A DNA stretch of 63,954 nucleotides, filler included, from an uncultured Acidimicrobiia bacterium (GTDB lineage: Bacteria > Actinomycetota > Acidimicrobiia > Spongiisociales > JAOTWH01): assembly GCA_964347285.1 (NCBI GenBank). It is 4 parts of 4 records of this genome, joined end to end, with 100 filler letters (N's around TTAATTAATTAA, not from the genome) between each part and the next. Parts side by side here need not be neighbours in the genome. Positions count along the whole stretch, not along the records: positions 34,184 to 51,097 come from CAYFYE010000058.1; 3 more parts are not named here. One strand, given 5' to 3'. Positions 34,084-51,197 of this stretch are shown here, in pieces. The notes under the pieces were generated by a model. It was not told where the DNA came from. It worked only from the letters and a program-made list of their open reading frames with translations, and made no database searches. Positions within the stretch are counted from its first letter, which is position 1; each line of letters begins with the position of its first letter. Both the position numbers and the translations under genes were made by a program.

Positions 34084-34183
34084 NNNNNNNNNNNNNNNNN
34101 NNNNNNNNNNNNNNNNNNNNNNNNNNNTTAATTAATTAANNNNNNNNNNNNNNNNNNNNNNNNNNNNNNNNNNNNNNNNNNNN
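34084..34183. other. Artificial contig-join spacer
   Basis: N/TTAATTAATTAA/N, 100 nt. Confidence 0.99.
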
Positions 34184-34256
34184 GCCCGTATCTCTCAGTT
34201 TAGGACTGTGACAGCGCAGAGTGGTAATGAGCCGAGGTAGGAGAGCCTCCGGCAAC

Positions 34257-35279
34257 CTATCGCTGCCACGTAGGGCGCGAATCAAGCGGAAAGGCCGGCT
34301 TGGAGGAGCGGTCCGATCGGGCCCTCCCCAGCTGGTGTCGAAACCACTCTGCGGTGCGATTCAGACCCTCGCGCAGTGGCACCGAGGGTTCCCATCCCAG
34401 ACCCGAGCGGGCCAAGGAGATGTCGGGGCGGCGGGCGGTCGGGTCGTCGACCGGCCGGCGATGGAACTCGACTCCGGGGTAGTTGCCGACCACGTCCTGG
34501 ATCAGCTCGGCAAGCTCGAGGATGGTCAACTCGTCGGGGTTGCCCAGATTGACCGGACCGGCAAGGTCCGAGAGGAGGAGTCGGACCAGGCCGTCGATGA
34601 GGTCGGTGACGTAGCACAGGGAGCGGGTCTGAGCGCCGTCGCCGTGAACGGGTAGGGGACGATCCTCGATGGCCGCAGAGAGGAAGGCTGGAACGGCCCG
34701 TCCGTCGTCGAGGCGCATGCGAGGGCCATAGGTGTTGAAGATGCGGGCCACCGCCACGTCCATCCCGTACGAGCGCTGATAGGCAAAGGTGAGGGCCTCC
34801 CCGTACCGCTTGGCCTCGTCGTACACCGAACGGGGTCCGATCGGATTGACCCGTCCCCAGTAGCTCTCGGGTTGGGGATGGACCTCGGGGTCTCCGTAGA
34901 CCTCGCTGGTCGAGGCCTGGAGGAATCTGACTCCGGAGTCCCGGGCCAGCTCCAGGGCGGCCTCGGTCCCCCGGGCTCCGGTGCGCAGCGTCTCCAGGGG
35001 AAGGTTCAGGTAATCGATCGGGGAGGCCGGCGATGCCAGGTTGAGGACGTAGTCGACCTCGCCGACGGAGGGGAGGCCGGAGGCGATGTCTGCTTCCATC
35101 AATTCGAAGCGGTCCGGATCGAGACCGGCCACGTTGTCGTTGGTGCCGGTAACCAGGTTGTCGATTGCGGTGACGCGGGCGCCGAGTCCGATGAGACGCT
35201 CACTGAGATGGGAGCCGAGAAAGCCGGCCCCGCCCAGCACCACGGCATGGCGTCCGTCCAGGGTTGGGATCTCGCTCAC
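34257..35279 (-). CDS. UDP-glucuronate decarboxylase (UXS) family protein
   Basis: [41 protein letters not shown] and [10 protein letters not shown]. Confidence 0.9.
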
Positions 35280-36256
35280 CCGGCCTTTCCCCGCCCTTGG
35301 TGCCAGCGGTGGGCGGTGCTCACGATCATTTCCAGATCGGAATGGGTCGGCTTCCAGGCCAACAGCTCGGTGGCTCGAGAGGGGTCGGCGACCAACTCGG
35401 GGGGGTCACCGTACCGGCGCTCCCGCTCGCGGGCAGGTACCGGTGCGCCGGCGGCCTCCTCCACGGCGGCGATGACCTCGCGGACCGAGTAGCCCCGCCC
35501 GGTGCCCAGATTGACGGCCTCGCTGGCACCTCCGGCGGCCAGGTGCTCCAGGGCGGCCACGTGGGCTGCGGCGAGATCGGACACATGGATGTAGTCGCGG
35601 ATCGGCGTGCCGTCGGGGGTGGGATAGTCGGTGCCGTAGATCTCCAGTTCGGGGAAGCGACCCGAAGCGGCGCCGATGGCCCTGGGGATGAGGTGGGGCT
35701 CGGGGTCGTGCTGTTCGCCGAGCTCGCCGTCGGGATCGGCCCCGGCGGCGTTGAAGTAGCGGAGGCCCATCCAGGGCAGTCCGATCAATCGGCCGTACCA
35801 GCCCAGGACCTTTTCGACGAACAGTTTTGCCTCGCCGTAGGGGCTGACTGGTGCTTTGGGGGCATTCTCCGCGATCGGCACGATCTTGGGCTCACCGTAT
35901 ACGGCGCAGGTGGAGGAGAGGACAAACGGTATCGGTCCGGCCTCGAGGACGGCCTCCAGAAGGGTGAGTGAGTTGGCGACGTTGTTGTGGAAGTAGCGGG
36001 CCGGGTCGGCCATCGATTCGCCCACGTAGGCGTCGGCGGCAAAGTGGATCACGGCCTCGGGCCGGTGCTCGCCGAACACCCGGCCCAGCCGCGAGGCGTC
36101 GCCGACGTTCCCTTCGATCAGGGGTCCCCAGCGGACCGCCCACCTCGTGTCGTGGCGGAGATCGTCGAGCACCAACGGCTCATGGCCTCCATTGGACAGG
36201 GCCTTGGCCGTGTGGCTTCCGATGTACCCGGCCCCGCCCGTTACCAGCACCCGCAC
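35276..36256 (-). CDS. galE: UDP-sugar 4-epimerase (GalE/Uxe-like)
   Basis: [30 protein letters not shown] and RDYIHV. Confidence 0.88.
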
Positions 36257-36299
36257 CAGCCCGCTCCTACTTGATTGCCACCCTCCGTGGTCACCCAGA

Positions 36300-37247
36300 T
36301 TAGCGCAATTCTTTCGACCCCGGGACGATCGACAGTGGCAAGTCGATGGGCAGGTGGAAGCCGGGGGACAGGGTCGGGGCCCGCCGTACTGCATTGACCA
36401 CCTGAGCGGTGGTGCCCTCGTCGCCGTGATACCCGCCGGGGATCTCGACCCGCACCTCGGGGAGGCCGTGCACCACGACGGCATCTCCGGGGCGGTCCAC
36501 CCCCCAGGCCATCGTCAGGTCGTAGGCGAGCTGCTCGCCGGCGGCGGTCCGCAGCCGGACCGTCTGATGCTGGCCGTCGACAGAGCCGTCGGCGGCGATC
36601 ACCGGCTCGATGGATTCATCGATCTCGGTGGGCTCCCAACCGAGGCCGGCGGCCAGCAGCCTGGCGCTCACCGCCAGCCCGACGTGGCCGATCGTGCCCT
36701 TGCCGGCCCGCCGCCGGAATTCGTCCTCGCTGAGGCCCCGGCCGCTCTTCGCCACCAGCGGGCCCCGCCGGGTAGCGGTGTCCACCCGCCGGCTCACCTC
36801 CACCGCCGTGACTCGACGGCTGGCGGTGGCCACCGCCAGGGCGAATCGATCCATGACGAACCCAGGATTGGCCCCGGTGGCGATCACCGTGCGCTCGGCC
36901 CGCCGGGCGGCATCGCCGAGCCGGCTCCGCCACGGGCTCCCGGGGTCGGACAGTTCCTCGCAGGTGGTGACGCAGTGATAGCCCCGGCCCAACAGTTGCT
37001 CGATGGCAGGGCCGGTGGCTCCGGCCCGAGAGGAGAAAGCGACCACTGCCCAGGCCCCCTCGTGGGCCACCGGCAGCCCCCCGGCACTGGCATGGCCGGT
37101 ACAGGCGAACTCCTCCTCGGCGGCCACCCGGGCGTCCTCGTTGGGATCGGCCACCCCCGACACCGCCGCCGCAACGTGATCGTCGAGAAGGGCGCGGACG
37201 GCAGCCCGACCGATGGGTCCGGCCCCGACCAGGGCGACGGTGCTCAT
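36300..37247 (-). CDS. DapB-like / 2,4-diaminopentanoate dehydrogenase-like (amine dehydrogenase family) oxidoreductase
   Basis: GAGPIG, TTCEELS, GANPGFVMD, GHVGL and GD.GT. Confidence 0.8.
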   Translation of the reverse strand: MSTVALVGAGPIGRAAVRALLDDHVAAAVSGVADPNEDARVAAEEEFACTGHASAGGLPVAHEGAWAVVAFSSRAGATGPAIEQLLGRGYHCVTTCEELSDPGSPWRSRLGDAARRAERTVIATGANPGFVMDRFALAVATASRRVTAVEVSRRVDTATRRGPLVAKSGRGLSEDEFRRRAGKGTIGHVGLAVSARLLAAGLGWEPTEIDESIEPVIAADGSVDGQHQTVRLRTAAGEQLAYDLTMAWGVDRPGDAVVVHGLPEVRVEIPGGYHGDEGTTAQVVNAVRRAPTLSPGFHLPIDLPLSIVPGSKELR

Positions 37248-37341
37248 GGATATCTCCTCTCCGGAGGCGAACTCGAGCGGCAAGCTAGCGGCGCTGGGAC
37301 GGGCGGGCCCAGGCCCCGGCCACGAGTCCACAGCGAACGGG

Positions 37342-37385
37342 ATTGTCGCCCACTCGCGGGCAGCGCCGCCAGGGTCCAAGGTCCC
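37342..37385 (-). promoter_or_regulatory. DosR/DevR-like box and -10
   Basis: GGGACCTTGGACCC palindrome (37372-85), centred 31.5 bp upstream of GACAAT (37342-47). Confidence 0.45.
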
Positions 37386-37439
37386 AAGAAGAACCGGCGC
37401 CGGGGGGCGCCGGTTCGGGAAGGTCCGCCGGGGACCTCC

Positions 37440-37667
37440 TCAGGCGTGCAACGTGCGAGGCCGGCAGGTCGGGGAAGAGGCGTCGCCGGGCCCGGGAAGG
37501 ACCCGCAGGCCCAGATCGACCAGGCGACGCCCGACGGCCAGGCGGAACCAGACCAGGCCCGCCGGACCCTCGGCCGGCCGCCTGGCCAGGCGGTGCCGAG
37601 CGGCCAGCTCTTGCTTTTCGTGGGTGAGGACTCGCGCCAGTTCCAACCCTAGGAATGTGTACGTCAT
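37440..37667 (-). CDS. Small hypothetical protein (75 aa) coupled to the ArsR-type gene
   Basis: AGGAGG RBS, and ATG immediately after the regulator stop. Arg-rich R...GRRLV.LG.R pattern. Confidence 0.65.
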   Translation of the reverse strand: MTYTFLGLELARVLTHEKQELAARHRLARRPAEGPAGLVWFRLAVGRRLVDLGLRVLPGPGDASSPTCRPRTLHA

Positions 37668-37668
37668 C

Positions 37669-38760
37669 TCATGCCTCCTGTGAAGCAGCTGTCGGCGTCG
37701 GGGCCAGGTAGGCCTCCAGCAGCCGGCTCGCCTGCGGTACCACGTCGGTGCGCAGGCTGTATTCCTTGTCCCGGCCCAAGGTGACCCGGACCAGGCCCGC
37801 CGCCCGTAGCAGACCGAGGTGGTGATGCACGGTCGGCTTGGACAGCTCGAGCCGCTCGGCCAGCTCGCCGAGTCCGGCATCGCCCTCGGCCAGAATGCCG
37901 AGGATGCGGAGTCGACGCTCGTCCCCTAGGGCCTTGTACAGCTTGACCAGCCACTGGGGAGGAGCGTCGGGATCGGAGGCCATCAGCTCGTCCGATACCG
38001 AGTAACAGAAGATTCGCATCGTCCCGTACTCGCTGATGACGTTCCAGGGCCTGATTACCACGCTGGGGATGAGCAGGACCCCGCCGGCAGGCTGCACCTC
38101 GAGCGTGAGGCCGTTGGTGGCCATCTCGACCATCTCCCGGGCCGGGAGAGTGGCGGCCAGCGCCTTCTTCTCGGCGGCGTCGCGAGCCAGCAGCTCGGTC
38201 ACCTCGTCCGCTTCCACGAAGACCTCGGCGGCGAAGCGCCGCAGCACATCGACGAGGGTGGCCCTGGTCCGCTCCGGTTCCATGGCCAGCAGGTGCCGTA
38301 AGCCGTCGTGTTTGAGAGCATCGAGCACCCCGTCGCTCAGTTGGGCGACGACCACCTGGTCTCCGCCGGCGGCGGCGGCAACGGTGTCTTCGTCGGGCCG
38401 CTCCTCGGGGTCCAGCCACGCCGAGGTCAACAGGTGGGCCCGCAGCTTGGTGGGATCCGCGGCGGCTACGTAGTCGGTAAACGCGTCGATGGTTCGGGTC
38501 GAAGCCTCGTAGGCGAGCGATACCAGCGCCAGCCACACCTCGGGGCTGTTGCCGAGGGCCTCCAGATCCCTGGCAAGGGTACGAGAGGCCCGTTCCCGAG
38601 CCGCTTCTGCCCAGGCATCGCCGATCTCGTACTCCTCGCAGCGCTCCTGGTCGGTGACCACGAAGAGCCGCAGCAGGAGCTCGTAGACGGGGGAGTGGTC
38701 GATCACCACGTCGAGGCGGCGCTCTCCTGTGGTGAAGTCTCGGACCTTGGGAGCCGTCAT
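37669..38760 (-). CDS. ArsR-family regulator with a large N-terminal domain and C-terminal wHTH
   Basis: C-terminal KALGDERRLRIL...LSKPTVHHHL..LRAAGLV. Confidence 0.88.
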   Translation of the reverse strand: MTAPKVRDFTTGERRLDVVIDHSPVYELLLRLFVVTDQERCEEYEIGDAWAEAARERASRTLARDLEALGNSPEVWLALVSLAYEASTRTIDAFTDYVAAADPTKLRAHLLTSAWLDPEERPDEDTVAAAAGGDQVVVAQLSDGVLDALKHDGLRHLLAMEPERTRATLVDVLRRFAAEVFVEADEVTELLARDAAEKKALAATLPAREMVEMATNGLTLEVQPAGGVLLIPSVVIRPWNVISEYGTMRIFCYSVSDELMASDPDAPPQWLVKLYKALGDERRLRILGILAEGDAGLGELAERLELSKPTVHHHLGLLRAAGLVRVTLGRDKEYSLRTDVVPQASRLLEAYLAPTPTAASQEA

Positions 38761-38773
38761 CTCGATTCCTTTG

Positions 38774-38817
38774 TTCGATCTATTTCGAATGATACGCCTA
38801 TCTTCAAAGAGTGTCAA
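38774..38817 (-). promoter_or_regulatory. Sigma70 promoter of the ArsR-type gene with a palindromic operator
   Basis: TTGACA(38817-12)-N17-TATCAT(38794-89). TTCGA-N6-TCGAA (38774-89) covers the expected start site. Confidence 0.75.
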
Positions 38818-38963
38818 GTCTGTTTTATCATTCCAGGTAACTGCAAAACCATGAGGAGGCTCGAAGAGTGAAGAAATCTCGAACAGACGTCGGGGAATGC
38901 TGGTTTCGGAACACGAGGGGGGCAAAGGCCGGAGCGGTGTCGCGAGGCCGATAACCTGGCCCG

Positions 38964-39434
38964 ATGCGTATCTCCTTCGGCATCGCCGCCGTGGTGCTCC
39001 TGGCCGCCGCCTGCGGGGACACCGCCTCGACCACGACCGAGCGTGCCGCGCCGACGGCTCCCGATACCACACCGGCCCCGACTGCGACCGAGGCACCGCT
39101 CCAAACCGTGCCGCCCGGCTCGCCCACCACCGCCTCTCCCACCACCGCCGCCCCCACCACGGTGGCCGAGGGAGTGGTGGAGATCGACGCGACCGTCTAC
39201 GAGGGCCAGGTGGACGCAGGTGGACGGGTGGAGGTGAGGGTGGGCGACCTGGTGGTCCTCAGGGTCACCTCCGACGTCGCCGATGAGGTGCACGTCCACG
39301 GCTACGACCTGTTTGCCGACGTGGGTGCCGGCGGCACCGCCTTGCTCGAGTTCAGCGCCGACATCCCAGGCATCTTCGAGGTGGAGCTGGAGGGAGCCGG
39401 CCTCGAGCTGCTCGAGCTGGTCGTCGAGCCGTGA
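38964..39434 (+). CDS. Lipoprotein with a C-terminal cupredoxin-like domain
   Basis: LAAAC lipobox, Thr/Pro linker and V.LRVTSD..DEVHVHGYD...PGIFEVELE. Confidence 0.8.
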   Translation: MRISFGIAAVVLLAAACGDTASTTTERAAPTAPDTTPAPTATEAPLQTVPPGSPTTASPTTAAPTTVAEGVVEIDATVYEGQVDAGGRVEVRVGDLVVLRVTSDVADEVHVHGYDLFADVGAGGTALLEFSADIPGIFEVELEGAGLELLELVVEP

Positions 39435-40783
39435 CGGCGCTGCGCCGTCTCGCCGTCGTGGTGTTGACGGCGGCGCTGCCCGTTGCTCTGCCGGCGGCCG
39501 CCTCCGCCCACGGCATCGGCGGCCGGGGCGACCTACCGGTGCCCGTCGAGTATTTCGTGGTGGGCGCCGGGGTGGTGCTGGCCGCCTCGTTCGCGGCGCT
39601 GGCGGTGCTGTGGCCCGAACCTCGCCTTCAGGACGGGCCCCGGGTCCGGATCCTGGCGATCCCCGGAGCCCGGGTCTTCGGATGGGTGCTGGCCGGGACG
39701 GGGCTGGTGGGCCTGGCGCTGGTGATCTCGGCCGGGCTGTTCGGCGACGAGCGCCGCAGCAATGCCGCTCCGGTGCTGGTGTGGGTCTACTTCTGGCTGG
39801 TGATCCCGTTCCTGGCGGTGGTCCTGGGCGACCTCTGGAGATCGATCAATCCATGGCGAACGATCTCCCGAGCGGCCGGGATCGGGGAGGAGGAGAGGGG
39901 TGGGTGGGTCACCCGCCTCGGGGTGTGGCCGGCCACGGTCGCCTTCGTGGCCTTCACCTGGCTGGAGCTGGTGTGGAGGGATCCGGCCCGGCCCAACGTG
40001 ATCTCGGCGGCGGCTCTGGTGTACACGGTGTACGTGATCGGCTTCATGGCGGTGGCGGGCCGCGAGCGGGGTCTGGTGGCCGGCGAGGCCTTCACTACCT
40101 ACATCGGCCTATTCGGCTCGATCGCCCCCATCGATCGGGACGACGACGGGCGAGTTCTGTGGAGAGGTTGGCTGCGAGCCCTCCCGTCGGTCACCCAACG
40201 ACCCGGTTTGGCGTTGTTCGTGCTGGCCATGTTGGGGACGGTCACCTACGACGGCCTGTCCAATACCGAATGGTGGGAAGAGCGGGTGGGTTCACTGGCC
40301 AACGAGGAATGGTTCGGCACCGTCGCCCTGGTGGGGTCGATCGCCGTCCTGGGCGCGGGTTACCTGACCGCCTCGTGGGCGGCCCGGCGCATCGGAGGGG
40401 GAGACCTGACTCTGGCGGCGGTGGCCCGCAGCTTCGCCCACACCCTGGTCCCCATCGCCCTGGCCTACGCGGTCGCCCACTACTTCACCCTGGTGATCTT
40501 CGAAGGCCAGCTGTTGTTTGCCGCCGTCAGCGATCCGCTCGGCCTGGGATGGGATCTGTTCGGGACCGCCGATTGGCGGATCAGCTTCTGGCTGTCGCCT
40601 ACCGCCATCTGGTACGTGCAGGTGGGGGCGATCGTGGCCGGGCACGTGGTTGCAGTCGTGCTGGCCCATGATCGAGCCCTGGCCCTCTTTCCCCGGGCCC
40701 GGGCGGTGCGGAGCCAGTACGCCATGTTGGCGCTCATGGTGGCACTGACCGGGCTCGGCCTGGTGCTGCTCTCGGCGGGATGA
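39431..40783 (+). CDS. Polytopic membrane protein with signal peptide ('fenitrothion hydrolase'-annotated family)
   Basis: ASA-HG...DLPVP, NPWR, WLEL, TYDG, LVPIALAY.VAHY, SDPLG.GW and GHV.AV.LAH. Confidence 0.8.
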   Translation: MTALRRLAVVVLTAALPVALPAAASAHGIGGRGDLPVPVEYFVVGAGVVLAASFAALAVLWPEPRLQDGPRVRILAIPGARVFGWVLAGTGLVGLALVISAGLFGDERRSNAAPVLVWVYFWLVIPFLAVVLGDLWRSINPWRTISRAAGIGEEERGGWVTRLGVWPATVAFVAFTWLELVWRDPARPNVISAAALVYTVYVIGFMAVAGRERGLVAGEAFTTYIGLFGSIAPIDRDDDGRVLWRGWLRALPSVTQRPGLALFVLAMLGTVTYDGLSNTEWWEERVGSLANEEWFGTVALVGSIAVLGAGYLTASWAARRIGGGDLTLAAVARSFAHTLVPIALAYAVAHYFTLVIFEGQLLFAAVSDPLGLGWDLFGTADWRISFWLSPTAIWYVQVGAIVAGHVVAVVLAHDRALALFPRARAVRSQYAMLALMVALTGLGLVLLSAG

Positions 40784-40974
40784 GGGTGCCGTCGCCCCTG
40801 GTGGTGGCCCATCAGTGGGGCTGGGACGAACTCCTCTATTTCGCCATCCCGGTCGGCATCGGCCTGTGGCTCATTCGCCTCGCCGAACGGCGGGCCCGGC
40901 GCCGTCACCTCAGGGAAGAAGGGGAATCACCCAAAACAGAGGGCGGGGAGTCCCCACGAAAGAGGAACCCGTAG
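40780..40974 (+). CDS. Small membrane protein
   Basis: ATGA overlap, AHQWGWDE, one TM helix and a basic tail. Confidence 0.6.
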   Translation: MRVPSPLVVAHQWGWDELLYFAIPVGIGLWLIRLAERRARRRHLREEGESPKTEGGESPRKRNP

Positions 40975-41090
40975 GGCAAGCGCTTCTCCGCCGGCATTAC
41001 CCGGAAGAGTGGGTCCGGTCATCGACTCCTACAGCCGAACTCTCAGCCGGGAAGTCACCCAGCTCCCGGGGTTCGCCCCACAGGTTCCTC
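40958..41090 (-). ncRNA. Stand-alone structured RNA containing a variant TPP-riboswitch-like aptamer
   Basis: CGGGAGC-P3-GCUGAGAG-stem-GACCG...CUC-UU-CCGG GUAAUG CCGG-CG-GAG, enclosed by an 18-bp stem (41073-41090 with 40962-40979). Confidence 0.8.
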
Positions 41091-41097
41091 AACGAGC

Positions 41098-41142
41098 AGT
41101 ATATACCTCGGGGCCACTCCCGTGATTAGGGCCGAAGGTCCC
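41098..41142 (-). promoter_or_regulatory. Promoter of the TPP-like RNA: TATACT -10 and DosR/DevR-like box
   Basis: TATACT at 41103-41098, 7 nt before the first stem base. GGGACCTTCGGCCCTAA at 41142-41126. Confidence 0.65.
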
Positions 41143-41212
41143 GACCTTCCTGTGGATATCTCTTCGCGCTCTCGCCCGGACGCCGACCGCGACCGCCGGG
41201 TACCCTGGCGGC

Positions 41213-42436
41213 ATGGCCCTCGACCTGCTCGAGCTGCGACCCCGATTCCCCGCCCTCAATCGCATCGTCGACGGCCGCCCGGCTGCATTTCTGGACGGAC
41301 CGGGAGGCACCCAGGTGCCGCGGTCGGTGATCAATGCGATGGCCGCCAGCCTGGAGCACGGGGGGGCCAATCTGGACGGGCACTTCGTGACCAGCTACGA
41401 GACCGCCGAGTTGGTGGCCCGGGCCCGCCGGGCAGTAGCCGATCTGTTCAATGCCGATCCGAGCGAGATCGTGTTCGGCCAGAACATGACCAGCCTCACC
41501 TTCGCGGTGAGCCGGGCCCTGGCCCGGAGCTGGAAGGAGGGCGATCAGATCGTGGTGACCCGTCTCGACCACGACGCCAACATCACTCCGTGGACGACGG
41601 CGGCCGCCGAACGGGGCGCCGAGCTGGTGTGGGTCGATTTTGATCCGGCCGACTGCACGCTCGACCTCGCCGGGCTGGAGTCGGCCGTCGGCCCCCGGAC
41701 CCGGCTGGTGGCAGTCACCGCCGCCTCCAATGCTGTCGGCACGGTGGTAGATGTCGCCCGGGCGGCTCGAGCGGCGCACAGTGTCGGGGCCTTGATCTAC
41801 GTGGACGGGGTCCACTACACGCCCCACGCCCTGGTCGACGTATTGGGCTGGGACGTGGACTTCTTTACCGCCTCGGCATACAAGTTCTTCGGCCCCCACA
41901 CCGGGATGCTGTACGGCAAGGCCGAGCACCTGGAGGCGCTCGACGCCTACAAGGTGCGGCCCGCCCCCGGCGATCCGCCCGGGAAATGGGAAACCGGCAC
42001 CCAGAGCTTCGAGAGCTTGGCCGGGGTCGCCGCCGCCGTGGACTACCTGGCCGGTCTGGGCACCGGCGACACGCGGCGCGACCATCTCGCCACCGCGATG
42101 ACGGCCATTGGGGACCACGAGACATCCCTCACCGAGCAGTTCCTCAAAGGAGTAGCGGCGCTGCCTTCGGTGCAGGTGTACGGGATCACCGACGGCTCGG
42201 CGCCCCGCACCCCCACTTTCGCCCTCTCCGTGGGGGGCTGGCACGCCGAGTTGGCGGCCGCCGAGCTGGGGAGGAGGGGGATCTTCGTCTGGTCGGGCCA
42301 CTACTACGCAGTGGCGGTGATGGAGCGGCTGGGGCTCCTCGAAGAGGGTGGCCTGGTTCGAATCGGCTTCGTCCACTACAACAGCCACGAAGAGGTGGAT
42401 CGGGTGCTGCGGGCTCTGGAGGCGCTGACCGCCTGA
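41213..42436 (+). CDS. Cysteine desulfurase-like class V PLP protein
   Basis: FLDGPGGTQVP, LDHDAN, SAYKFFGPH and ETGT. Confidence 0.9.
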   Translation: MALDLLELRPRFPALNRIVDGRPAAFLDGPGGTQVPRSVINAMAASLEHGGANLDGHFVTSYETAELVARARRAVADLFNADPSEIVFGQNMTSLTFAVSRALARSWKEGDQIVVTRLDHDANITPWTTAAAERGAELVWVDFDPADCTLDLAGLESAVGPRTRLVAVTAASNAVGTVVDVARAARAAHSVGALIYVDGVHYTPHALVDVLGWDVDFFTASAYKFFGPHTGMLYGKAEHLEALDAYKVRPAPGDPPGKWETGTQSFESLAGVAAAVDYLAGLGTGDTRRDHLATAMTAIGDHETSLTEQFLKGVAALPSVQVYGITDGSAPRTPTFALSVGGWHAELAAAELGRRGIFVWSGHYYAVAVMERLGLLEEGGLVRIGFVHYNSHEEVDRVLRALEALTA

Positions 42437-42443
42437 GGGGGCT

Positions 42444-42959
42444 CTACCCTCTTCGTCGGGCGGTAGGGCGGCGGCGGGCCAGAGGCTGGAGGAGGCGGCG
42501 TAATACCCGGACCCAAAGAGACCAGTCGCGGGGACGCTCTACGGCGCCGGTGACCGCGTTCTCCGCTTTGTCAAGCGCATCTTCGAGCAGCGCGTCGTGC
42601 AGCGGCCGGAAGACGAGCGGCCAGGTCAGCCGGGCTGTACGGCGAGGCTCGGCCTCGAGGAGGTGGCGGAGCACCGCCGATTCCCCCGAGGGTTCGACCG
42701 AGAACTCGTGGAATCCGACCAGGCCCGGAGGGCGAGTGAAGCGAAGCCGGACTCGCTTTCCCGGTTCGTACTCCTTCACGTAGTAGCGGACGGGGCCGTG
42801 TCCACCGGCAGCACCCTCGCCCAGGGGGCGGTCGAAGACCATCGGCGGCCAGCGTTCGGCAGGCCACAGCGGATCGGGACGCCCGGCCAGCCCGTCGATC
42901 AGGGCTCCGACGGCCTGGATGGAGGCCGGCAAGCGCCGTTGGTGGACCACGCGTATCAA
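42444..42959 (-). CDS. SRPBCC-like protein
   Basis: TTG start with AGGAG RBS; WP..RWPPM.FDRPL..GA.GGHGPVRY and RPLHDALLED. Confidence 0.75.
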   Translation of the reverse strand: MIRVVHQRRLPASIQAVGALIDGLAGRPDPLWPAERWPPMVFDRPLGEGAAGGHGPVRYYVKEYEPGKRVRLRFTRPPGLVGFHEFSVEPSGESAVLRHLLEAEPRRTARLTWPLVFRPLHDALLEDALDKAENAVTGAVERPRDWSLWVRVLRRLLQPLARRRPTARRRG

Positions 42960-43082
42960 AGGCTTCTCCTGACTCTCAACGATAGGTCGGCCTCCGGGGG
43001 CCCATGACGCCGGCGGCAAACGAAGATGGTGCGCGTCCCACGCCCTACCATCGGCGGCGCGACTCGACCGGAGGCATGTGTC

Positions 43083-46000
43083 GTGGAGAGGGAGTTCATC
43101 ACGATCGACGGCAACGAGGCGGCCGCTCGCATCGCCCACAAGGTGAGCGAGGTGGTCGCCGTCTATCCGATCACGCCGGCCTCGCCGATGGGGGAGCTGG
43201 CAGATGCCTGGTCGCAGGCCGGCCAAACCAACATCTGGGGGACGATTCCCGAGATCGTCGAGATGCAGTCGGAGGCCGGGGCGGCCGGGGCGGTGCACGG
43301 CTCGCTCCAGGCCGGAGCGCTCACTACCACCTTCACTGCTTCCCAGGGGCTGCTGCTGAAGATCCCCAACATGTACAAGATCGCCGGCGAGCTCTCCCCG
43401 ACCGTCTTCCACATCGCGGCTCGCACCGTGGCGACCCACGCCCTGAGTATCTTCGGGGACCACTCCGACGTGATGGCGGTCCGCGCCACCGGCTTTGCCA
43501 TGCTGTGCTCCTCGTCGGTGCAGGAGGTCCAGGACCTGGCACTGGTGGCCCATGCGGTCACCCTCACCAGCCGGGTCCCGTTCCTGCACTGGTTCGACGG
43601 GTTCCGTACTTCGCACGAGGTCGCCAAGATCGAGGCGATCACCGATGCCCAGATCGGCGAGATGATCGATGAGGGAGCGGTGGCCCACCATCGCCTCCGG
43701 GCCCTCAACCCCCATCATCCGGTGCTGCGGGGCTCGGCCCAGAACCCCGACGTGTTCTTCCAGGCCCGCGAGGCAGCCAACCCGTACTACACCACTTTGT
43801 CCGGCGAGGTGCAGGCGGCGATGGATCAACTGGCCGAGCTGACCGGCCGCCAATACCACCTGTTCGACTACTCCGGCGCCGCCGACGCCGAGCGGGTGCT
43901 GGTGGTCATGGGCTCGGGAGCGGGGGCGGCCGCCGAGGCCGTTGAGCTGCTCGCCGCCCAGGGAGAGAAGGTCGGCCTGGTGACCGTGCGCCTCTACCGG
44001 CCCTTCGATGCTGCCGCCTTCGCGGCCGTCCTTCCCGAAACCACCAGAGTGATCGGAGTGCTGGACCGGACCAAGGAACCGGGGGCGGTGGGCGAGCCGC
44101 TCTTCCTCGACGTCGTCGCCGCCCTCGCCGAGCCGGCCGCCCGGGAGCGGCTGCCCGATACCCCTCGGGTGGTGGGAGGACGCTACGGGCTGTCCTCCAA
44201 AGAGTTCACCCCGGCGATGGCCCGAGCCGTGCTCGCCAATCTCGAGGGCGACGAACCTCGCACGCACTTCACGGTCGGGATCACCGACGACGTCTCTCAC
44301 ACATCGCTCGACGTCGACGAGGAGTGGTGGGAGGAGCCCGAGCACGTCGTACAGGCCGTCTTCTACGGTCTGGGAGCAGACGGCACGGTGGGCGCCAACC
44401 GCAACTCGGCCAAGATCATCGGCGAGCACACCGACCTCTACGCCCAGGCCTACTTCGTCTACGACTCGAAGAAGGCGGGCTCGGTGACGGTGTCCCACCT
44501 CCGCTTCGGCAAACATGCCATCCGCTCCTCCTATCTGGTGCGACAGGCCGAGTTCGTGGCCTGCCACCAGTTCGGGTTCCTGGAGAAGATGGACGTGCTC
44601 CGCACCGCCGCCCCCGGGGGGACGTTCCTCCTCAACAGCCCCTACGGGCCGGACGAGGTGTGGTCGCACCTGCCCGCCACGGTGCAGGCCCAGATCCAGG
44701 ACAAGGAACTGGCGCTGTGGGTGATCGATGCCGACCGGATCGCGCGAGAGGTGGGGTTGGGGGGCCGCATCAACACCGTGCTGCAGACCTGCTTCTTCAC
44801 GCTGTCGGAGATCCTGTCCCGGGACAAAGCCGTCGACGCCATCAAAGAGGCGATCCGCGAGACGTACGGCAAGCGGGGCGAGGTGGTGCTGAACCGCAAC
44901 TTCGCTGCGGTCGACGAGGCGCTGGTCGGCCTGCATCGGGTCGAGGTGCCCACCGAGCAGGTGGCGGTGTCCTCCGCGCCGCCGCCCCCGGAAGACCCCT
45001 TCGAGCGGGTGGTGCGCCGAATCATCGCCGGGGACGGCGATCTACTGCCGGTGAGCGCCCTGCCGGTGGACGGGACCTTCCCCACCGGCACCGCCCAATG
45101 GGAGAAGCGTTCGATCGCCAGCGAGATCCCGATTTGGGATGCCGAGATCTGCATCGACTGCGCCCGGTGCGCCTTGGTGTGCCCTCATGCCGCCATCCGC
45201 ATGAAAGTCTTCGATGCCTCCGCTCTCGAGGGCGCCCCGCCCGGATTCAAATCCAAGCCGTGGGAGAAAGGGCGCGACTTCGCCGGTCTGCAGATGACCA
45301 TTCAGGTGGCGCCGGATGACTGCACCGGCTGCAAGGTGTGCGTGAACGTGTGCCCGGCCCACTCCAAAGAGGAGGTCAAGCACAAGTCCATCAACATGGA
45401 ACCCAAGGCAGAGCACCTGGAGCGGGAACGGTCGTGGTTCGACTACTTCCTCACGATCCCCGAGGTGGACCGGACCACCGTTCGTCCGGCCACCGTGGTG
45501 GGCTCCCAAGCCCTCCAGCCCCTGTTCGAGTTCAGCGGGGCCTGCGCCGGCTGCGGGGAGACCCCCTACCTGAAGCTGCTGACGCAGATGTTCGGCGACC
45601 GGATCGTGGTCGCCAACGCCACCGGATGCTCTTCGATCTTCGGGGGCAATCTGCCCACCACCCCATGGTCGGCCAACCCCGACGGGCTGGGACCGGCCTG
45701 GTCCAACTCCCTGTTCGAGGACAATGCCGAGTTCGGCATGGGGATGCGCCTGGCCCTCGATGCCCAACGCGACGCGGCGGAACGGTTGCTGCGGCGCCTG
45801 GCTCCCGAGGTGGGCGGGGAGCTGGCCGCAGCACTTCTCGACGCCGACCAGTCGGATGAGTCCGGGCTGGCGGCCCAGAGAGAGCGGGTGGCGGCCCTCA
45901 AGGAGCAACTGTCCGGGATCGACACGGCCGAGGCCAAACGGCTGGCGTCGGTGGCCGACACACTGGTGTGGACCGGGGTGTGGATCGTGGGCGGTGACGG

Positions 46001-46646
46001 CTGGGCGTACGACATCGGATTCGGCGGCCTCGACCACGTGCTCGCCTCGGGACGGAACGTCAACATGCTGGTGCTCGACACCGAGGTGTACTCCAACACC
46101 GGCGGACAGGCCTCCAAGGCCACCCCGCGGGCGGCGGTGGCCAAGTTCGCCTCCGGCGGCAAGTCGACCGGCAAAAAGGATCTGGGAACCCTGGCCCTGT
46201 CGTACGGCAACGTGTACGTGGCCCAGATCGCCATGGGCGCCAACATGACCCAGACCGTGAAGGCGTTCGCCGAGGCCGAAGCCCACCCCGGTCCCTCGCT
46301 GATCATCGCCTACAGCCCGTGCATCGCCCACGGAATCGACATGGAGACGATGATGGGCCACCAGCGGGAGGCAGCCGACAGCGGCTATTGGCCGCTCTTC
46401 CGCTTCGATCCGGCCCGGGCGGCCGACGGCGGGACCCCGTTCAAGCTCGACAGCCGCAAACCGAGCATTCCCTTCCGGGAGTACGCCATGAAGGAGGCCC
46501 GCTTCGCCATGCTGGCCCGGGCCAATCCGGAAGAAGCAGAGCGGCTGATGGCCGAGGCCCAGGCCGACATCGACGACCGCTGGCACCGCTACGAACAAGC
46601 CACCGACATCGAGTGGACGGCTCACGAGGTCGAGGAGGAGGCATGA
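43083..46646 (+). CDS. nifJ: Pyruvate:ferredoxin (flavodoxin) oxidoreductase
   Basis: DGNEA, YPITP, EMQSEAGA, two CxxCxxCxxxCP clusters, GACAGCGE and GGDGWAYDIG (TPP motif). Confidence 0.96.
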   Translation: MEREFITIDGNEAAARIAHKVSEVVAVYPITPASPMGELADAWSQAGQTNIWGTIPEIVEMQSEAGAAGAVHGSLQAGALTTTFTASQGLLLKIPNMYKIAGELSPTVFHIAARTVATHALSIFGDHSDVMAVRATGFAMLCSSSVQEVQDLALVAHAVTLTSRVPFLHWFDGFRTSHEVAKIEAITDAQIGEMIDEGAVAHHRLRALNPHHPVLRGSAQNPDVFFQAREAANPYYTTLSGEVQAAMDQLAELTGRQYHLFDYSGAADAERVLVVMGSGAGAAAEAVELLAAQGEKVGLVTVRLYRPFDAAAFAAVLPETTRVIGVLDRTKEPGAVGEPLFLDVVAALAEPAARERLPDTPRVVGGRYGLSSKEFTPAMARAVLANLEGDEPRTHFTVGITDDVSHTSLDVDEEWWEEPEHVVQAVFYGLGADGTVGANRNSAKIIGEHTDLYAQAYFVYDSKKAGSVTVSHLRFGKHAIRSSYLVRQAEFVACHQFGFLEKMDVLRTAAPGGTFLLNSPYGPDEVWSHLPATVQAQIQDKELALWVIDADRIAREVGLGGRINTVLQTCFFTLSEILSRDKAVDAIKEAIRETYGKRGEVVLNRNFAAVDEALVGLHRVEVPTEQVAVSSAPPPPEDPFERVVRRIIAGDGDLLPVSALPVDGTFPTGTAQWEKRSIASEIPIWDAEICIDCARCALVCPHAAIRMKVFDASALEGAPPGFKSKPWEKGRDFAGLQMTIQVAPDDCTGCKVCVNVCPAHSKEEVKHKSINMEPKAEHLERERSWFDYFLTIPEVDRTTVRPATVVGSQALQPLFEFSGACAGCGETPYLKLLTQMFGDRIVVANATGCSSIFGGNLPTTPWSANPDGLGPAWSNSLFEDNAEFGMGMRLALDAQRDAAERLLRRLAPEVGGELAAALLDADQSDESGLAAQRERVAALKEQLSGIDTAEAKRLASVADTLVWTGVWIVGGDGWAYDIGFGGLDHVLASGRNVNMLVLDTEVYSNTGGQASKATPRAAVAKFASGGKSTGKKDLGTLALSYGNVYVAQIAMGANMTQTVKAFAEAEAHPGPSLIIAYSPCIAHGIDMETMMGHQREAADSGYWPLFRFDPARAADGGTPFKLDSRKPSIPFREYAMKEARFAMLARANPEEAERLMAEAQADIDDRWHRYEQATDIEWTAHEVEEEA

Positions 46647-47653
46647 GCGTCGATCTGACCACCCGCTACCTGGGCCTGGAGCTGGCCCACCCGCTGGTCC
46701 CGTCGGCCTCGCCCCTCACCGGGGGGATCGAGTCGCTGCGGCGGCTGGAGGAGGCGGGAGCGGCCGCCGTCGTGCTCCCGTCGTTGTTCGAGGAACAGAT
46801 CGAGCACGAAGCGATGGCGGTGCACGAGTCCCTCGAGCAGGGAGTGGCCGCCTACGCCGAGGCGGCCGGCGGCTACCTGCCGGAGATGGAGGATTACAAC
46901 ACCGGGCCTTCCTCGTATCTGGAGTTGATCGGGCAAGCCAAAGAGGCCCTGTCGATTCCGGTGATCGGGAGCCTCAACGGGGTGTCGCTCGGCGGATGGA
47001 CGCTGTACGCCAAGCTGTTCGAAGAGGCCGGCGCCGACGCCCTCGAAGTGAACATCTACTTCGTCGCTGCCGACGCCGAGATGACCTCGGCCCAGGTAGA
47101 GGACCAGTACCTCGAACTGGTGTCGGCGCTGCGGGCCGCGATCGAGATTCCCCTGGCGGTCAAGGTGGGACCGTTCTTCTCGTCGATGGCGAGTTTCGCC
47201 CGCCGGCTCGCCGAGGCCGGCGCCGACGGCCTGGTGCTCTTCAACCGGTTCTATCAGCCCGACATCGACCTCGAGCATCTGGAGGTCCGGCCAGATCTCG
47301 TACTGAGCACGTCCGAGGAGATGAGACTCGTGTTGCGCTGGATGGCCATTCTGCGGGGCCGTGTGAATGCCTCGCTGGCCGCGACGACCGGCGTCCACAC
47401 CTCGGACGATGTGGTGAAGCTGATCCTGGCCGGAGCCGACGTGACGATGATGGCCTCGGCTTTGATCGAGAACGGGCCGTCCCACCTGACCGAGGTCCTC
47501 GCTGGGGTGGAGACGTGGCTCGAAGACCACCAGTACGAATCGGTGGAGCAGGCCAAGGGCAGCCTCAGCCAAGAGGCCTCCCCCGATCCGGCCGCGTTCG
47601 AGCGGGCCAACTACATGCGGACACTGGTGACCTACTCGACCGAGAAATGGTGA
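46643..47653 (+). CDS. Dihydroorotate dehydrogenase-like flavoprotein
   Basis: DLTTRYLGL, SLFEEQI, LFNRFYQPDID and ERANY. Coupled to nifJ. Confidence 0.88.
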   Translation: MSVDLTTRYLGLELAHPLVPSASPLTGGIESLRRLEEAGAAAVVLPSLFEEQIEHEAMAVHESLEQGVAAYAEAAGGYLPEMEDYNTGPSSYLELIGQAKEALSIPVIGSLNGVSLGGWTLYAKLFEEAGADALEVNIYFVAADAEMTSAQVEDQYLELVSALRAAIEIPLAVKVGPFFSSMASFARRLAEAGADGLVLFNRFYQPDIDLEHLEVRPDLVLSTSEEMRLVLRWMAILRGRVNASLAATTGVHTSDDVVKLILAGADVTMMASALIENGPSHLTEVLAGVETWLEDHQYESVEQAKGSLSQEASPDPAAFERANYMRTLVTYSTEKW

Positions 47654-47775
47654 GTACCGCTCACAGGTCTTGACCCGGCGAGTGGGCCGACCACCCCCGA
47701 GAGATGGTCTCCGGCGGGGGTTCAAGTTCCCGGTCCCCATGCCGACACATATGGAGACATCGACAGGGAGTGGTC

Positions 47776-47979
47776 GTGACCACCCTCACCGTCGCATGCC
47801 CCACCTGTGGGGCCAGGAGCCGAGCCCGCCACGGACACTGCGTCGTGTGCGGCAATGGGCTGGAGGAGCACCGCCGTGAGCTCGAGGCGACCGAGATCCG
47901 CTACTGCCTGGGCTGTGGACTGGGCTGGAAACCTCTCGACCAGCACGGCTTCTGCACGTACTGCACCGAAGGTCGATAG
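47776..47979 (+). CDS. Small double zinc-ribbon protein
   Basis: Four CxxC motifs (CPTC, CVVC, CLGC, CTYC) and a GGGAG RBS. Confidence 0.7.
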   Translation: MTTLTVACPTCGARSRARHGHCVVCGNGLEEHRRELEATEIRYCLGCGLGWKPLDQHGFCTYCTEGR

Positions 47980-48003
47980 TTGCCGCCGAGCGGGTTCGCG
48001 TCC

Positions 48004-48891
48004 TCAGCCGGCCGGCACCGACTCGGCGCCGAGCTCGACATCTTGCTCTGGGGTGACCATCTCCGAGCGCCGAAAGTAGAGGAGCAGCCCCACCCCGAGC
48101 AGCGCAGCCCCCAGGGCGCCCCATTGGCTGCCGGTGAACGGTCCCATCACCGAGTCGGCCACGGTGCCATCGCGGGCGGCGCCTAGGCGGGCGAAGTCGA
48201 TGACGAACCGCTGGAGTCCATATCCGATTGTGTACACGGCGAAGAGCTGCCCGTAGCGGTAGTGCCAGCGCCGCCTCAGTACCAGGAGCAGGCCGAGCAG
48301 GGCGGCCGCCAGCAAGAGGTCATAGAGGGCGGTGTGGTGATACGTCAGGCACAGGTCCAGCTCGTCACACAGCCGCTGCAGGTCGGCGTGCTGGGGTGCG
48401 ATCTCATAGCCGGGCTCGAGGCGGTAGCCGAGAAAGAAGCTGGTCTGCGAGCCCAAGTGCTCGACGATGGCCAGGTCGCCCAACCGTCCCACCACCGTGC
48501 CGAGGGCCATTCCCGGCGCGGCCATGTCGATGTACGGAGGCAGGCTGGCCTTGAGCAGCCGGAGGCGGAGCACCCCGCCCAGGACGCCCCCGGCCAGACC
48601 CCCCAGGATCGAGTAGTGGCCCGACGGGCTGAAGACATCGTCGATCCCATAGCCGGGATCGCCGATGTGGGCGGGAATGGTGAACAGGCGGATTCCAATG
48701 AGGGCCCCAACGGCAGCCCAGGTCAGTGCGGAGATGGCGTAGTCGGCGCTGAAGTTGCGTCGCCTCACTTCGCGAACCATGAACCAGCTCCCGACCAGGA
48801 AGCCGACGCCGGCGAACAGGCCATGGAGCGACAGGTTGAGTGGACCAATCTCGAAGATGGGGACGGGTGGATAGCTGATGGCGCCGAGCAC
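48004..48891 (-). CDS. lgt: Prolipoprotein diacylglyceryl transferase
   Basis: IGPL.LSLHG, GRLGD...EHLG, HHTALYD and RFVIDF.R. Confidence 0.85.
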   Translation of the reverse strand: MLGAISYPPVPIFEIGPLNLSLHGLFAGVGFLVGSWFMVREVRRRNFSADYAISALTWAAVGALIGIRLFTIPAHIGDPGYGIDDVFSPSGHYSILGGLAGGVLGGVLRLRLLKASLPPYIDMAAPGMALGTVVGRLGDLAIVEHLGSQTSFFLGYRLEPGYEIAPQHADLQRLCDELDLCLTYHHTALYDLLLAAALLGLLLVLRRRWHYRYGQLFAVYTIGYGLQRFVIDFARLGAARDGTVADSVMGPFTGSQWGALGAALLGVGLLLYFRRSEMVTPEQDVELGAESVPAG

Positions 48892-48965
48892 GGTCAAAGC
48901 CTAGGCGGGGCCGGGGTCAAGACCTCCGTGGGCCGCCCGCCGTCGAAGAGTCGTAGAGTTGGGGC

Positions 48966-49196
48966 ATGGAGAGTGTCGACCCGGCAGTCGAAGGATGGGT
49001 GGAGCGGATCATCCGGGAGGCCGTCGAGCGCGGCGAATTCGACCACCTCGAGGATCGAGGCAAGCCGCTCGAGATCCTCGCCGAGCCCTACGATCCCCTG
49101 TGGTGGGTGAAGCGCTGGGTGCGGCGTGAGGAGCTTTCTGAGGTTCTGGGAACGGCCGGGGAGCGGAGAACTGGGTCGGATGATAAGGACCGGTAG
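48966..49196 (+). CDS. DUF1992-like small protein
   Basis: VERIIREAVERGEFDHL..RGKPL...WWVKR...RE. Confidence 0.8.
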   Translation: MESVDPAVEGWVERIIREAVERGEFDHLEDRGKPLEILAEPYDPLWWVKRWVRREELSEVLGTAGERRTGSDDKDR

Positions 49197-49253
49197 CGGC
49201 CGGCGGCCGAGTTGGCATAGCGCACCGGTCCGCGTAGGTTGCCGGTCCATCCC

Positions 49254-49637
49254 ATGACCGACCCGACCGAGACACCAATTGGCGAGATGTGGCTCGACCG
49301 TGATGGGGTGCTGTGGCATCGGATCCGGCCCGGAGCCACGATCACCGTGGAGGATGCCGAGGCCGTGATCGAGATCGTGCGCCGCCTCACCGGCGGGCGC
49401 CAGGTCCCGGCCGTCATCGACATCCGAGAAGTCACCGAGGCCGACTCCCGGGTTCGGGAGCGCTTTGCCGGTTCCACGGAGACCAGCCTCGAGCTCGCCA
49501 CCGCCCTCGTCGTCAGCTCGGGTTTGAGCCGGATGCTGGGCAACTTGTTCCTGCTGATGAATCGTCCGGAGCGACCGGTACGGCTTTTCACGTCGGAGGA
49601 CAAGGCGGCTGAGTGGGCTCGCAGTTTCCTCAGGTGA
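49254..49637 (+). CDS. STAS/SEC14-like small protein
   Basis: VIDIREV, ALVVSS.LSRMLGNLF and PVRLF.SED.A.EW. Confidence 0.75.
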   Translation: MTDPTETPIGEMWLDRDGVLWHRIRPGATITVEDAEAVIEIVRRLTGGRQVPAVIDIREVTEADSRVRERFAGSTETSLELATALVVSSGLSRMLGNLFLLMNRPERPVRLFTSEDKAAEWARSFLR

Positions 49638-49641
49638 CCTC

Positions 49642-50238
49642 ATGACCGAAGGACGCGACCCGGCCGGCTTCGACTCCGCCTACCAAGGGACCCCTCCCTG
49701 GGACATCGGCCGGCCCCAGCGCGAGTTCGTCGCTCTGGCCGAGGCGGGCTCGATCACAGGGAGCGTCCTCGACGTCGGCTGCGGGACCGGCGAGAACGCC
49801 TTGTTCCTGGCCGAAGGCGGCCTGGAGGTCGTCGGCGTCGACGGTTCGCCGACGGCGATCCGCCGGGCCCGGGCCAAAGCCGAAGAGCGACGGACTCCGG
49901 TCACGTTCGTGGTCGGCGATGCGCTCAAGCTGGAGAGTCTGGGCAGGAGCTTCGATACGATCATCGACTGCGGCCTGTTCCACGTGTTCTCCGACGAGGA
50001 ACGGGTCGGCTTCGAGAAGTCGCTGCGCCGGGCACTCCGATCCGGCGGGCGCTACTTCATGATGTGCTTCAGTGAGCAGGAGCCGGGAGATCACGGGCCG
50101 CGCCGGGTAACCCAGGACGAGATCCGGCGGACGTTCGCCGCGGGGTGGACGGTAGAGGAAATACGGCCGGCGACCTTCGAGACCCTACTGCCCAGCGGTG
50201 ACGTCAAGGCCTGGCTGGCATCGTTCACCCGGCCGTAG
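49642..50238 (+). CDS. Class I SAM-dependent methyltransferase
   Basis: PPWDIGRPQ, VLDVGCGTGEN and DCGLFH. Confidence 0.9.
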   Translation: MTEGRDPAGFDSAYQGTPPWDIGRPQREFVALAEAGSITGSVLDVGCGTGENALFLAEGGLEVVGVDGSPTAIRRARAKAEERRTPVTFVVGDALKLESLGRSFDTIIDCGLFHVFSDEERVGFEKSLRRALRSGGRYFMMCFSEQEPGDHGPRRVTQDEIRRTFAAGWTVEEIRPATFETLLPSGDVKAWLASFTRP

Positions 50239-50296
50239 GCATAACGCCGGCACAACGAGGTCGATAGGGTGGGCGATCCGCGACGGGAGGGGAGAG

Positions 50297-50596: not shown

Positions 50597-50658
50597 ATCG
50601 CGAGGCGCCCGAGAGGGGCAGCGGGATCCCGCCGCCCCTCGGAGCGGTGCCCTAGAAC

Positions 50659-51009: not shown

Positions 51010-51097
51010 GCTCACCCCCTGTCGACGGCACGGTGCCATGAGTAGGCATCCGCGGTCCCGAGTGCTAGGGCCGAAAGTCGTGGGAATTGCTGGAGGG

Positions 51098-51197
51098 NNN
51101 NNNNNNNNNNNNNNNNNNNNNNNNNNNNNNNNNNNNNNNNNTTAATTAATTAANNNNNNNNNNNNNNNNNNNNNNNNNNNNNNNNNNNNNNNNNNNN
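51098..51197. other. Artificial contig-join spacer
   Basis: N/TTAATTAATTAA/N, 100 nt. Confidence 0.99.

Follow-up and report, generated by a model that had tools for sequence, protein, structure and literature searches.

A candidate small-RNA gene family derived from the thiamine pyrophosphate aptamer in one order of Acidimicrobiia

The locus described here lies in a stretch of DNA of 63,954 nucleotides (the window) from an uncultured Acidimicrobiia bacterium (assembly GCA_964347285.1). The window is made up of several contigs, with N runs at 17055-17154, 34084-34183, 51098-51197, and 52632-52731; arguments from gene neighbourhood are valid only within the 16.9-kb contig 34184-51097. On the minus strand of this contig, positions 40962-41090 form a three-way junction which resembles the aptamer of the thiamine pyrophosphate (TPP) riboswitch and which is enclosed by an 18-bp closing stem, P1. 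According to codon-position GC and homology the genes flanking this element are all on the plus strand, i.e., the element is antisense and sits in the gap between two plus-strand genes. We propose that it belongs to a family of small-RNA genes, carried by one order of the Acidimicrobiia, which would have been derived from the TPP aptamer and would be transcribed from promoters of their own.

In P1 the minus-strand nucleotides 41090-41073 pair with 40979-40962 at all 18 positions, by 15 Watson-Crick and 3 G-U pairs. A preliminary description of this DNA had reported the same minus-strand sequence, the same stem, and a TATACT hexamer 7 nt ahead of the first stem base (41103-41098); all three were read again at the locus, and the stem is also borne out by the fold. 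The minimum-free-energy structure includes the closing stem (z = -3.86), and none of 200 dinucleotide shuffles was equally stable. A terminator-like hairpin with a T-rich tail adjoins P1 at 40957-40933(-), one site compared with a mean of 0.2 in shuffles. The features of the locus are collected in Table 1.

Table 1. Coordinates of the element and of its neighbours within the window.
Feature	Position	Strand	Basis or remark
P1, 5' strand of the extended closing helix, 18 nt	41073..41090	-	sequence, fold, covariation
TPP-aptamer-like core: P2, P3, CUGAGA, P3a, P4-P5	40980..41072	-	RF00059 and R2 alignments
CUGAGA of the core	41046-41041	-	RF00059 alignment
P3a hairpin, loop UGUAGGA	41040-41021	-	AGGAG at 41030-41026
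P4-P5 arm, CUC UU CCGG GUAAUG CCGG CG GAG	41009-40986	-	RF00059/R2 alignments
P1, 3' strand	40962..40979	-	sequence, fold, covariation, R2 alignment
UUUC, then terminator-like hairpin GTGGGGACTCCCCGC with tail CCTCTGTTTT	40933..40961	-	probable 3' end of the RNA
-10-like hexamer TATACT	41098..41103	-	7 nt between hexamer and first stem base
Imperfect palindrome GGGACCTTCGGCCCTA	41127..41142	-	ends 36 nt before the closing stem
Lipoprotein-like open reading frame (ORF)	38964-39434	+	first of a three-gene unit
450-aa multi-pass membrane protein, no Pfam family	39431-40783	+	second of the three-gene unit
Convergent 64-aa small membrane ORF	40780..40974	+	tblastn matches in L034, L035, L036, L038
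Divergent class-V aminotransferase, cysteine-desulfurase-like	41213..42436	+	PF00266, 224 bits; neighbour, not part of the element
Pyruvate:ferredoxin oxidoreductase	43026-46646	+	ORF scan

The start of the 64-aa ORF overlaps the stop of the 450-aa gene, and its 3' end overlaps the 3' part of the RNA; tblastn finds it conserved at four of seven relatives' loci. The 450-aa membrane protein itself is conserved, with 52-61% identity, in all seven other genomes of the family. As had been claimed previously, no sense ORF follows the element, none with a coding signature being detected; the minus strand there runs antisense to the plus-strand genes 39431-40783 and 40780-40974. The other ORFs scanned on the contig comprise sugar epimerases, an ArsR-type regulator, Lgt, a methyltransferase, and others. 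No thiamine gene is among the called ORFs scanned on the 16.9-kb contig (46650-48000 was not scanned), in agreement with the earlier statement that none is nearby. The further claim that an expression platform is absent holds overall, with the exception of the terminator-like hairpin next to P1.

How closely does the core resemble a TPP riboswitch? An Rfam scan of the whole window at the gathering score returned two tRNAs and nothing else. When 701 nt around the element were scanned, the TPP riboswitch model RF00059 aligned in full length to 40966-41079(-) with 32.7 bits (E 1.6e-4), compared with a cut-off of 54.3 bits; the other Rfam families gave three chance-level matches only, with E between 1.4 and 3. 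The TPP likeness noted earlier is thus real, with a score under the threshold. The pyrimidine-sensor helix is preserved: GCUGAGA aligns to the RF00059 consensus, and the posterior probabilities are high. Agreement with this consensus extends to P5, its GUAAUG loop, and the CG that comes next. Where the consensus has ACCUGAU the window reads ACUCUU, and its P4 is made anew from CUC and GAG, UU facing CG. The bases considered here as contacting the pyrophosphate are those of the published TPP aptamer structures. TPP riboswitches reside in 5' leaders of genes for the synthesis, salvage, or transport of thiamine and have an expression platform; the window element does not reside in such a leader, both neighbours being on the opposite strand. 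The fold is that of a TPP aptamer; judged by the Rfam criterion and by genomic role, the element is outside the riboswitch family as annotated.

The element is not a singular case. A BLAST search against 40 relatives yielded TPP-like cores in genomes of the same order, and at L004, L005, L006, L007, and L013 a long closing helix is present besides the core. RNAalifold of these five sequences together with the window gave compensatory changes in 16 of 40 pairs, mostly in the extended P1. A covariance model built from the six sequences (R1) found matches in 115 of 151 genomes of the order, many of them full-length. The top 30 loci plus 20 further regions were retrieved, and according to P1 pairing in the model alignment they fall into two groups: 25 sequences with 13-16 of 16 positions paired (long-P1), and the rest with 0-13 of 16 or with the core only (short-P1). 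Borderline cases were assigned by hand, e.g., L063 with 13 pairs was placed in the short group. One of the 25 alignment rows and one of the six training rows of R1 are from G011, a genome flagged as unpublished. Long-P1 elements were verified in at least 20 of the 151 sampled genomes and in eight of the 12 sampled families of the order, a lower bound because only top hits were retrieved. Several genomes possess two long-P1 copies plus a canonical aptamer.

Independently of the covariance model, a signature composed of the P3 3' strand, CUGAGA, and the P3a loop was searched in one genome each of 185,579 species. It returned 25 stretches, 24 of which are full-length R1 matches. By their record titles 20 are Acidimicrobiia or Acidimicrobiaceae metagenome-assembled genomes; the other five are titled uncultured actinobacterium, Actinomycetota bacterium, uncultured bacterium, bacterium, and uncultured Gammaproteobacteria. 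The long-P1 element of the last of these (L090) is full-length and has the same sequence as that of L044, a member of the order, and because of this identity its title may reflect mis-binning. L099, titled Bathyarchaeota, matched by chance: it fits the signature pattern and not the covariance model. Among 151 genomes sampled at class level all matches of at least 61 bits were in the window's own order; the roughly 114 genomes of other orders gave 58.6 bits at best and another 56.8 bits, both known by score alone. A second covariance model (R2) was built from the 24 public sequences of the signature scan, the window excluded. R2 scores the window with 100.3 bits (E 6.7e-22, model positions 1-129) and recognizes only the core of the other TPP aptamer of this genome (46 bits), scores to be read in view of the low effective sequence number of R1 and R2 alike. 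The preliminary description had suggested a covariance-model search, and R1 and R2 have indeed uncovered relatives with the closing stem in variable gene context. Pooled from both searches, the long-P1 set consists of 42 distinct element sequences.

Members of this class share with RF00059 the three-way junction, P2-P3 with CUGAGA, the optional P3a, P4-P5 with an L5 of the GUAAUG type, and the CG after P5; some of them reach the Rfam cut-off, scoring 58.8 bits. They differ in that P1 has 16-18 bp compared with about 5, that the P3a loop is conserved, that no expression platform is seen, and that no thiamine gene is downstream; in the window the pyrophosphate arm also has other junction bases.

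In the alignment of the 25 long-P1 sequences covariation supports the closing helix. Fifteen of the 16 P1 pairs have changed on both sides, which answers a test that had been named beforehand, i.e., covariation in the closing stem. Compensatory changes are present in every helix of the class alignment. When the 3' partners are slid, whole-structure pairing drops to 33-49%, and the whole-structure values observed were reached by none of 500 shuffles. Frequent G-U pairs fix the strand. Within P1, three consecutive pairs are nearly invariant (G-C in 23/25, C/U-G in 23/25, and C-G in 24/25). P4 and P5 are still paired in these members (93% and 98.9%), again with compensatory changes.

CUGAGA is present in 41 of the 42 long-P1 members. 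The P3a loop is A-rich, with the consensus CAAUAGGAG or CAAGAGGAG, and ends with AGGAG in 28 of 42; the loop of the window, UGUAGGAG, has the same ending. The P3a loops of short-P1 aptamers in the same genomes are variable. Since the Rfam model treats P3a as a stem that is optional and variable, the conservation of its loop is specific for the class. A small ORF within the element was considered, as in the window an AUG follows AGGAG, and was rejected, as a conserved start codon was not seen among the other members.

Gene context separates long-P1 from short-P1 elements. The flanks of the 42 long-P1 loci were inspected for 1.5 kb on each side, choosing ORFs by the GC content of third codon positions (GC3) and scanning them against Pfam. 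None of the 42 has a sense thiamine gene downstream among these flank ORFs. The sole thiamine-like match, 511 nt downstream of L101, is an NMT1/THI5-like ORF in convergent orientation. The genes around the 42 loci are of many kinds: GDSL lipase, NAPRTase, PEPCK, a response regulator, an M50 protease, P-type ATPases, HAD/trehalose phosphatase, adenylate cyclase, GNAT, PadR, and others. Of the short-P1 aptamers from the same order 25 of 26 directly precede a thiamine gene, the first sense ORF beginning at -28 to +233 nt. These genes encode the thiamine ABC-transporter binding protein TIGR01254 in 20 cases and the thiamine diphosphokinase TIGR01378 in five; the 26th aptamer is followed by an 85-aa fragment at a contig end without family match. 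Whether homologues are located upstream of thiamine genes was the other test named beforehand, and the result is 0/42 for long-P1 versus 25/26 for short-P1. The type of P1 predicts gene context almost perfectly, and the groups were defined without reference to context.

The class also has characteristic ends. In 18 of 42 members a TANNNT hexamer has its end precisely 7 nt ahead of P1, and in 21 of 42 it lies within -16 to -4, compared with 0-2 of 42 at eight control offsets. Most other members possess near-variants at the same place, e.g., CATCGT, CATTCT, or TATAAC. On the opposite side, the 10 nt following P1 contain on average 3.83 T in the 42 members compared with 1.78 in 672 control windows, and five or more T are found in 17/42 members versus 2.7% of controls. 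Most often GGGCCUUGC is found there, followed by ACCUUUU. The RNA-strand bases before P1 are not A-rich in the class listing, as they would be in a bidirectional terminator. The fixed promoter position and the T-rich tail fit a self-contained predicted transcript, and in this respect they lend support to the stand-alone RNA of the preliminary description.

Further upstream two motifs define subtypes. Palindromes of the GGGACCTTCGGCCCTA type, which end about 34-37 nt before P1, are seen by eye in about 10 other members from three families. A second motif, TTTCGCG, is located about 48-60 nt before P1 and is followed by a -35/-10 pair (L041, L048, L051, L097, L100, L104, and others). The genome G118 carries one long-P1 RNA of each subtype. 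In the window's own genome the palindrome, written as GGGAC(C/T)TT(C/A)GGCCCTA with one mismatch allowed, recurs at C52:9657-9672, C93:2575-2590, and C152:887-902 (loci L118-L120), on C152 twice in tandem; by our own estimate about 0.06 sites are expected by chance at one mismatch. With up to two mismatches there was no enrichment over a reversed-pattern control in this genome. The genomic sites precede unrelated ORFs. A DUF411 ORF and another with a Sigma70_r2 match have weaker copies in front of them. The palindrome looks like the DNA site of some regulator whose regulon would include the RNA; it is likely a regulator site or an upstream promoter element. An ECF-type (extracytoplasmic function) promoter at the palindrome was rejected, as a suitably spaced, conserved -10 was not seen.

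The upstream motif raises the question of whether the RNA begins earlier, i.e., whether the element is part of a longer RNA starting at the conserved palindrome, or the 3' end or terminator of a neighbour. A conserved motif 36-51 nt upstream of P1 and same-strand genes ending 54-133 nt upstream in several relatives would agree with this. In the window, however, both neighbours are on the other strand, and the -10-like hexamer fixed at 7 nt from P1 in 18/42 members favours P1 as the start. Like a DNA site, the upstream motif is without compensatory pairing and is met again before unrelated genes. We regard a longer RNA, or the 3' end of a neighbour, as very improbable.

In which physiological setting would such an RNA operate? 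The window's own genome, 90.5% complete, has one other TPP aptamer. It is canonical (53.2 bits) and precedes a thiamine diphosphokinase and then, as judged by eye, a thiB-like ORF. Searches for ThiC, TMP-TENI (ThiE), and ThiG gave no match in this genome; the same searches match 11-13 of 14 control genomes. Since these matches are missing, the organism probably imports thiamine and pyrophosphorylates it, i.e., it would be a thiamine auxotroph. In such a genome the second, gene-less thiamine-type aptamer would be left without a biosynthetic operon to regulate.

Taken together, we consider it probable that the element is an autonomous small RNA which starts at P1, ends just after it, contains a pre-closed aptamer, and exerts no cis action on a thiamine gene. 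Because the -10 element ends 7 nt upstream, transcription is predicted to start at the first base of the 16-18-bp closing helix. The transcript would end just after P1, resulting in an RNA of about 130-155 nt in which the aptamer is locked shut by P1. In many relatives this end would be the T-rich tail right after P1; in the window it would be UUUC plus the small terminator hairpin. As P2-P3 and CUGAGA are kept almost without exception, a thiamine-type ligand is probably still bound. The RNA would control no downstream thiamine gene and would most likely act away from its own locus. What the sequence comparisons show is membership in the family, covariation, the promoter at its fixed position, the T-rich tail, and the split in context; the transcript as such, its ligand binding, and a role in trans are what we infer from them.

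Several observations weigh against an autonomous small RNA. The calling of flank genes from GC3-chosen ORFs is crude, and it leaves 27 of 42 loci resolvable and 15 of 42 not. At the resolvable loci, with Pfam support and, in the window, by conservation, the nearest downstream ORF is sense in 16 of 27 and convergent in 11 of 27. The split of 16:11 itself speaks for the autonomous RNA, as it is roughly what would be expected for insertion regardless of the neighbour's orientation. In the 16 cases the sense gene begins 58-341 nt downstream, and a cis role is possible there. Such a role could be that of an attenuator with the aptamer inside a terminator: ligand would compact the junction, and the long P1 with the T-rich tail would terminate; otherwise transcription would read through, into sense genes or antisense to convergent ones. 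In the window the operon of the 450-aa membrane protein and the 64-aa ORF would be transcribed in antisense. The T-rich tail directly after P1 in many members would suit this design, and a terminator-embedded aptamer has a reported precedent in the riboswitch for hydroxymethylpyrimidine pyrophosphate (HMP-PP; thiS motif; PMC6478431). Yet the downstream genes have no theme in common (M50 protease, P-type ATPase, HAD phosphatase, cyclase, GNAT, PadR, and others), and 11 of the 27 are convergent. A helix as long as 16-18 bp should form whether ligand is present or not, and in the window P1 is directly followed by a second hairpin of the terminator type. No alternative pairing is seen. Pairing of the P3a loop and 3' strand with the 80 nt after P1 was a candidate and was rejected, with a mean of -10.8 kcal/mol at the own locus versus -10.2 across loci (permutation p = 0.08). 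We therefore judge an attenuator unlikely.

Other points weighing against the autonomous RNA concern its ends, its ligand, and its history. The start, end, and abundance of the RNA are read from DNA. A consensus promoter scan gave no full sigma-70 match at the TATACT of the window element, and this -10 is without a convincing -35. A clear T-rich tail is present in only 17 of 42 members. In the 25 aligned long-P1 sequences 95.5% of P1 cells are paired, a percentage which is partly circular because the group was picked by P1 pairing (at least 13/16) in a model-fitted alignment; the compensatory changes and the context split are free of this circularity. The canonical CCUG(A/G)...CG pattern of P4-P5 is found in 19 of 42 members. 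The window is not among them, so TPP itself may not be its ligand. Members with the palindrome promoter, the window included, tend to have a P4 of the ACUC type. A pyrophosphate arm which is kept as a structure, with a variable junction, would fit re-tuning or relaxed ligand recognition better than decay.

At the seven same-family loci which have the membrane-protein gene there is neither a TPP-like match nor the downstream aminotransferase gene, a further point against the autonomous RNA. The locus is a synteny break, and thus the element is not syntenic within its family. This break would be compatible with a decayed TPP riboswitch, a relic after loss or rearrangement of its thiamine gene, as would an Rfam score far under the cut-off and a genome lacking ThiC, ThiE, and ThiG matches. 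A relic is hardly to be reconciled with the state of the RNA, however. All helices are intact, with P1 paired at 16/16 model positions, and the window is a high-scoring member of a family which is present in eight of 12 sampled families and has compensatory changes in every helix. The promoter position and the class-specific loop are conserved too. All of this speaks for purifying selection, and we attach next to no credence to a relic.

Turning back to the autonomous small RNA, two modes of action can be envisaged. It might be a regulated sink for TPP or thiamine which shifts the set-point of the single canonical TPP riboswitch of the genome, and with it thiamine diphosphokinase and transporter; a sink would be in keeping with a P1 that is locked, with strong ends, and with the presence of a canonical riboswitch alongside. 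Alternatively, a protein or RNA partner might be engaged in a ligand-dependent manner via the conserved, class-specific P3a loop, A-rich and ending with AGGAG. CsrA was considered as a reader of the GGA loop; no PF02599 match was found in the window's own genome (90.5% complete), and the idea was dropped. Equally possible, the conserved P3a loop and the invariant P1 pairs could make an internal tertiary contact, which would explain why these class-specific features of P3a loop and P1 occur together. In its widest form the proposal would be that this is the first family of riboswitch aptamers which are autonomous genes, i.e., a sensor of TPP or of a precursor, made from its own regulated promoter in likely auxotrophs and acting in trans. 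It would either buffer the pool of free cofactor and so reset the threshold of the canonical riboswitch, or present the AGGAG loop of P3a to a protein, the ribosome, or an mRNA depending on ligand; in subtypes like that of the window the pyrophosphate pocket would be re-tuned to another ligand. This extended version is tentative, and we are more inclined to doubt it than to accept it.

The preliminary description had not recognized the element as a described class. The Rfam scan agrees, and full-text literature searches found no description of such an RNA class. Small RNAs bearing riboswitches have reportedly been encountered in Listeria, i.e., SreA/SreB, and among the B12-riboswitch small RNAs EutX/Rli55. 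The Vc2 cyclic di-GMP riboswitch of Vibrio cholerae reportedly controls the stability of an upstream small RNA (bioRxiv 10.1101/617340). The reported output of the aptamer in Vc2, SreA/SreB, and EutX/Rli55 is an RNA and not the expression of an adjacent coding gene, as proposed for the long-P1 class; unlike the latter, their aptamers are within a longer RNA or a 5' untranslated region. In the long-P1 class the gene would consist of little more than the aptamer and its closing helix; the class constitutes a conserved family and has its own predicted promoter. The HMP-PP riboswitch, as reported, is comparable in that a ligand-binding fold of thiamine metabolism is enclosed by, or coincides with, a terminator stem (PMC6478431). 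It differs by a much smaller and different fold and by its position ahead of thiS and other thiamine genes; this family was not among the Rfam matches in the 701-nt scan of the element region.

Riboswitch aptamers are defined by their effect on the gene behind them. A conserved family whose members are nothing but the aptamer, locked by a long helix between a promoter and a stop signal of its own, would, if true, be a different use of the metabolite sensor, and an ancient cofactor-binding RNA would have been put to work on its own. The Acidimicrobiia that carry it are so far known mostly from metagenome-assembled genomes. As the window genome appears to import and not to make thiamine, the RNA may bear on how environmental bacteria handle a scarcity of vitamin B1. 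Annotation pipelines can miss long-P1 elements, the window being below threshold, or can mislabel them as ordinary TPP riboswitches.

A minor observation was made in two genomes of the window's own family. A GC-rich hairpin, about 88 nt long and conserved between L035:3617-3704 and L036:3623-3710, matches a microRNA model with 35.3 and 27.3 bits, respectively, at a cut-off of 69. It is surely not a microRNA and may be a structured element or a repeat.

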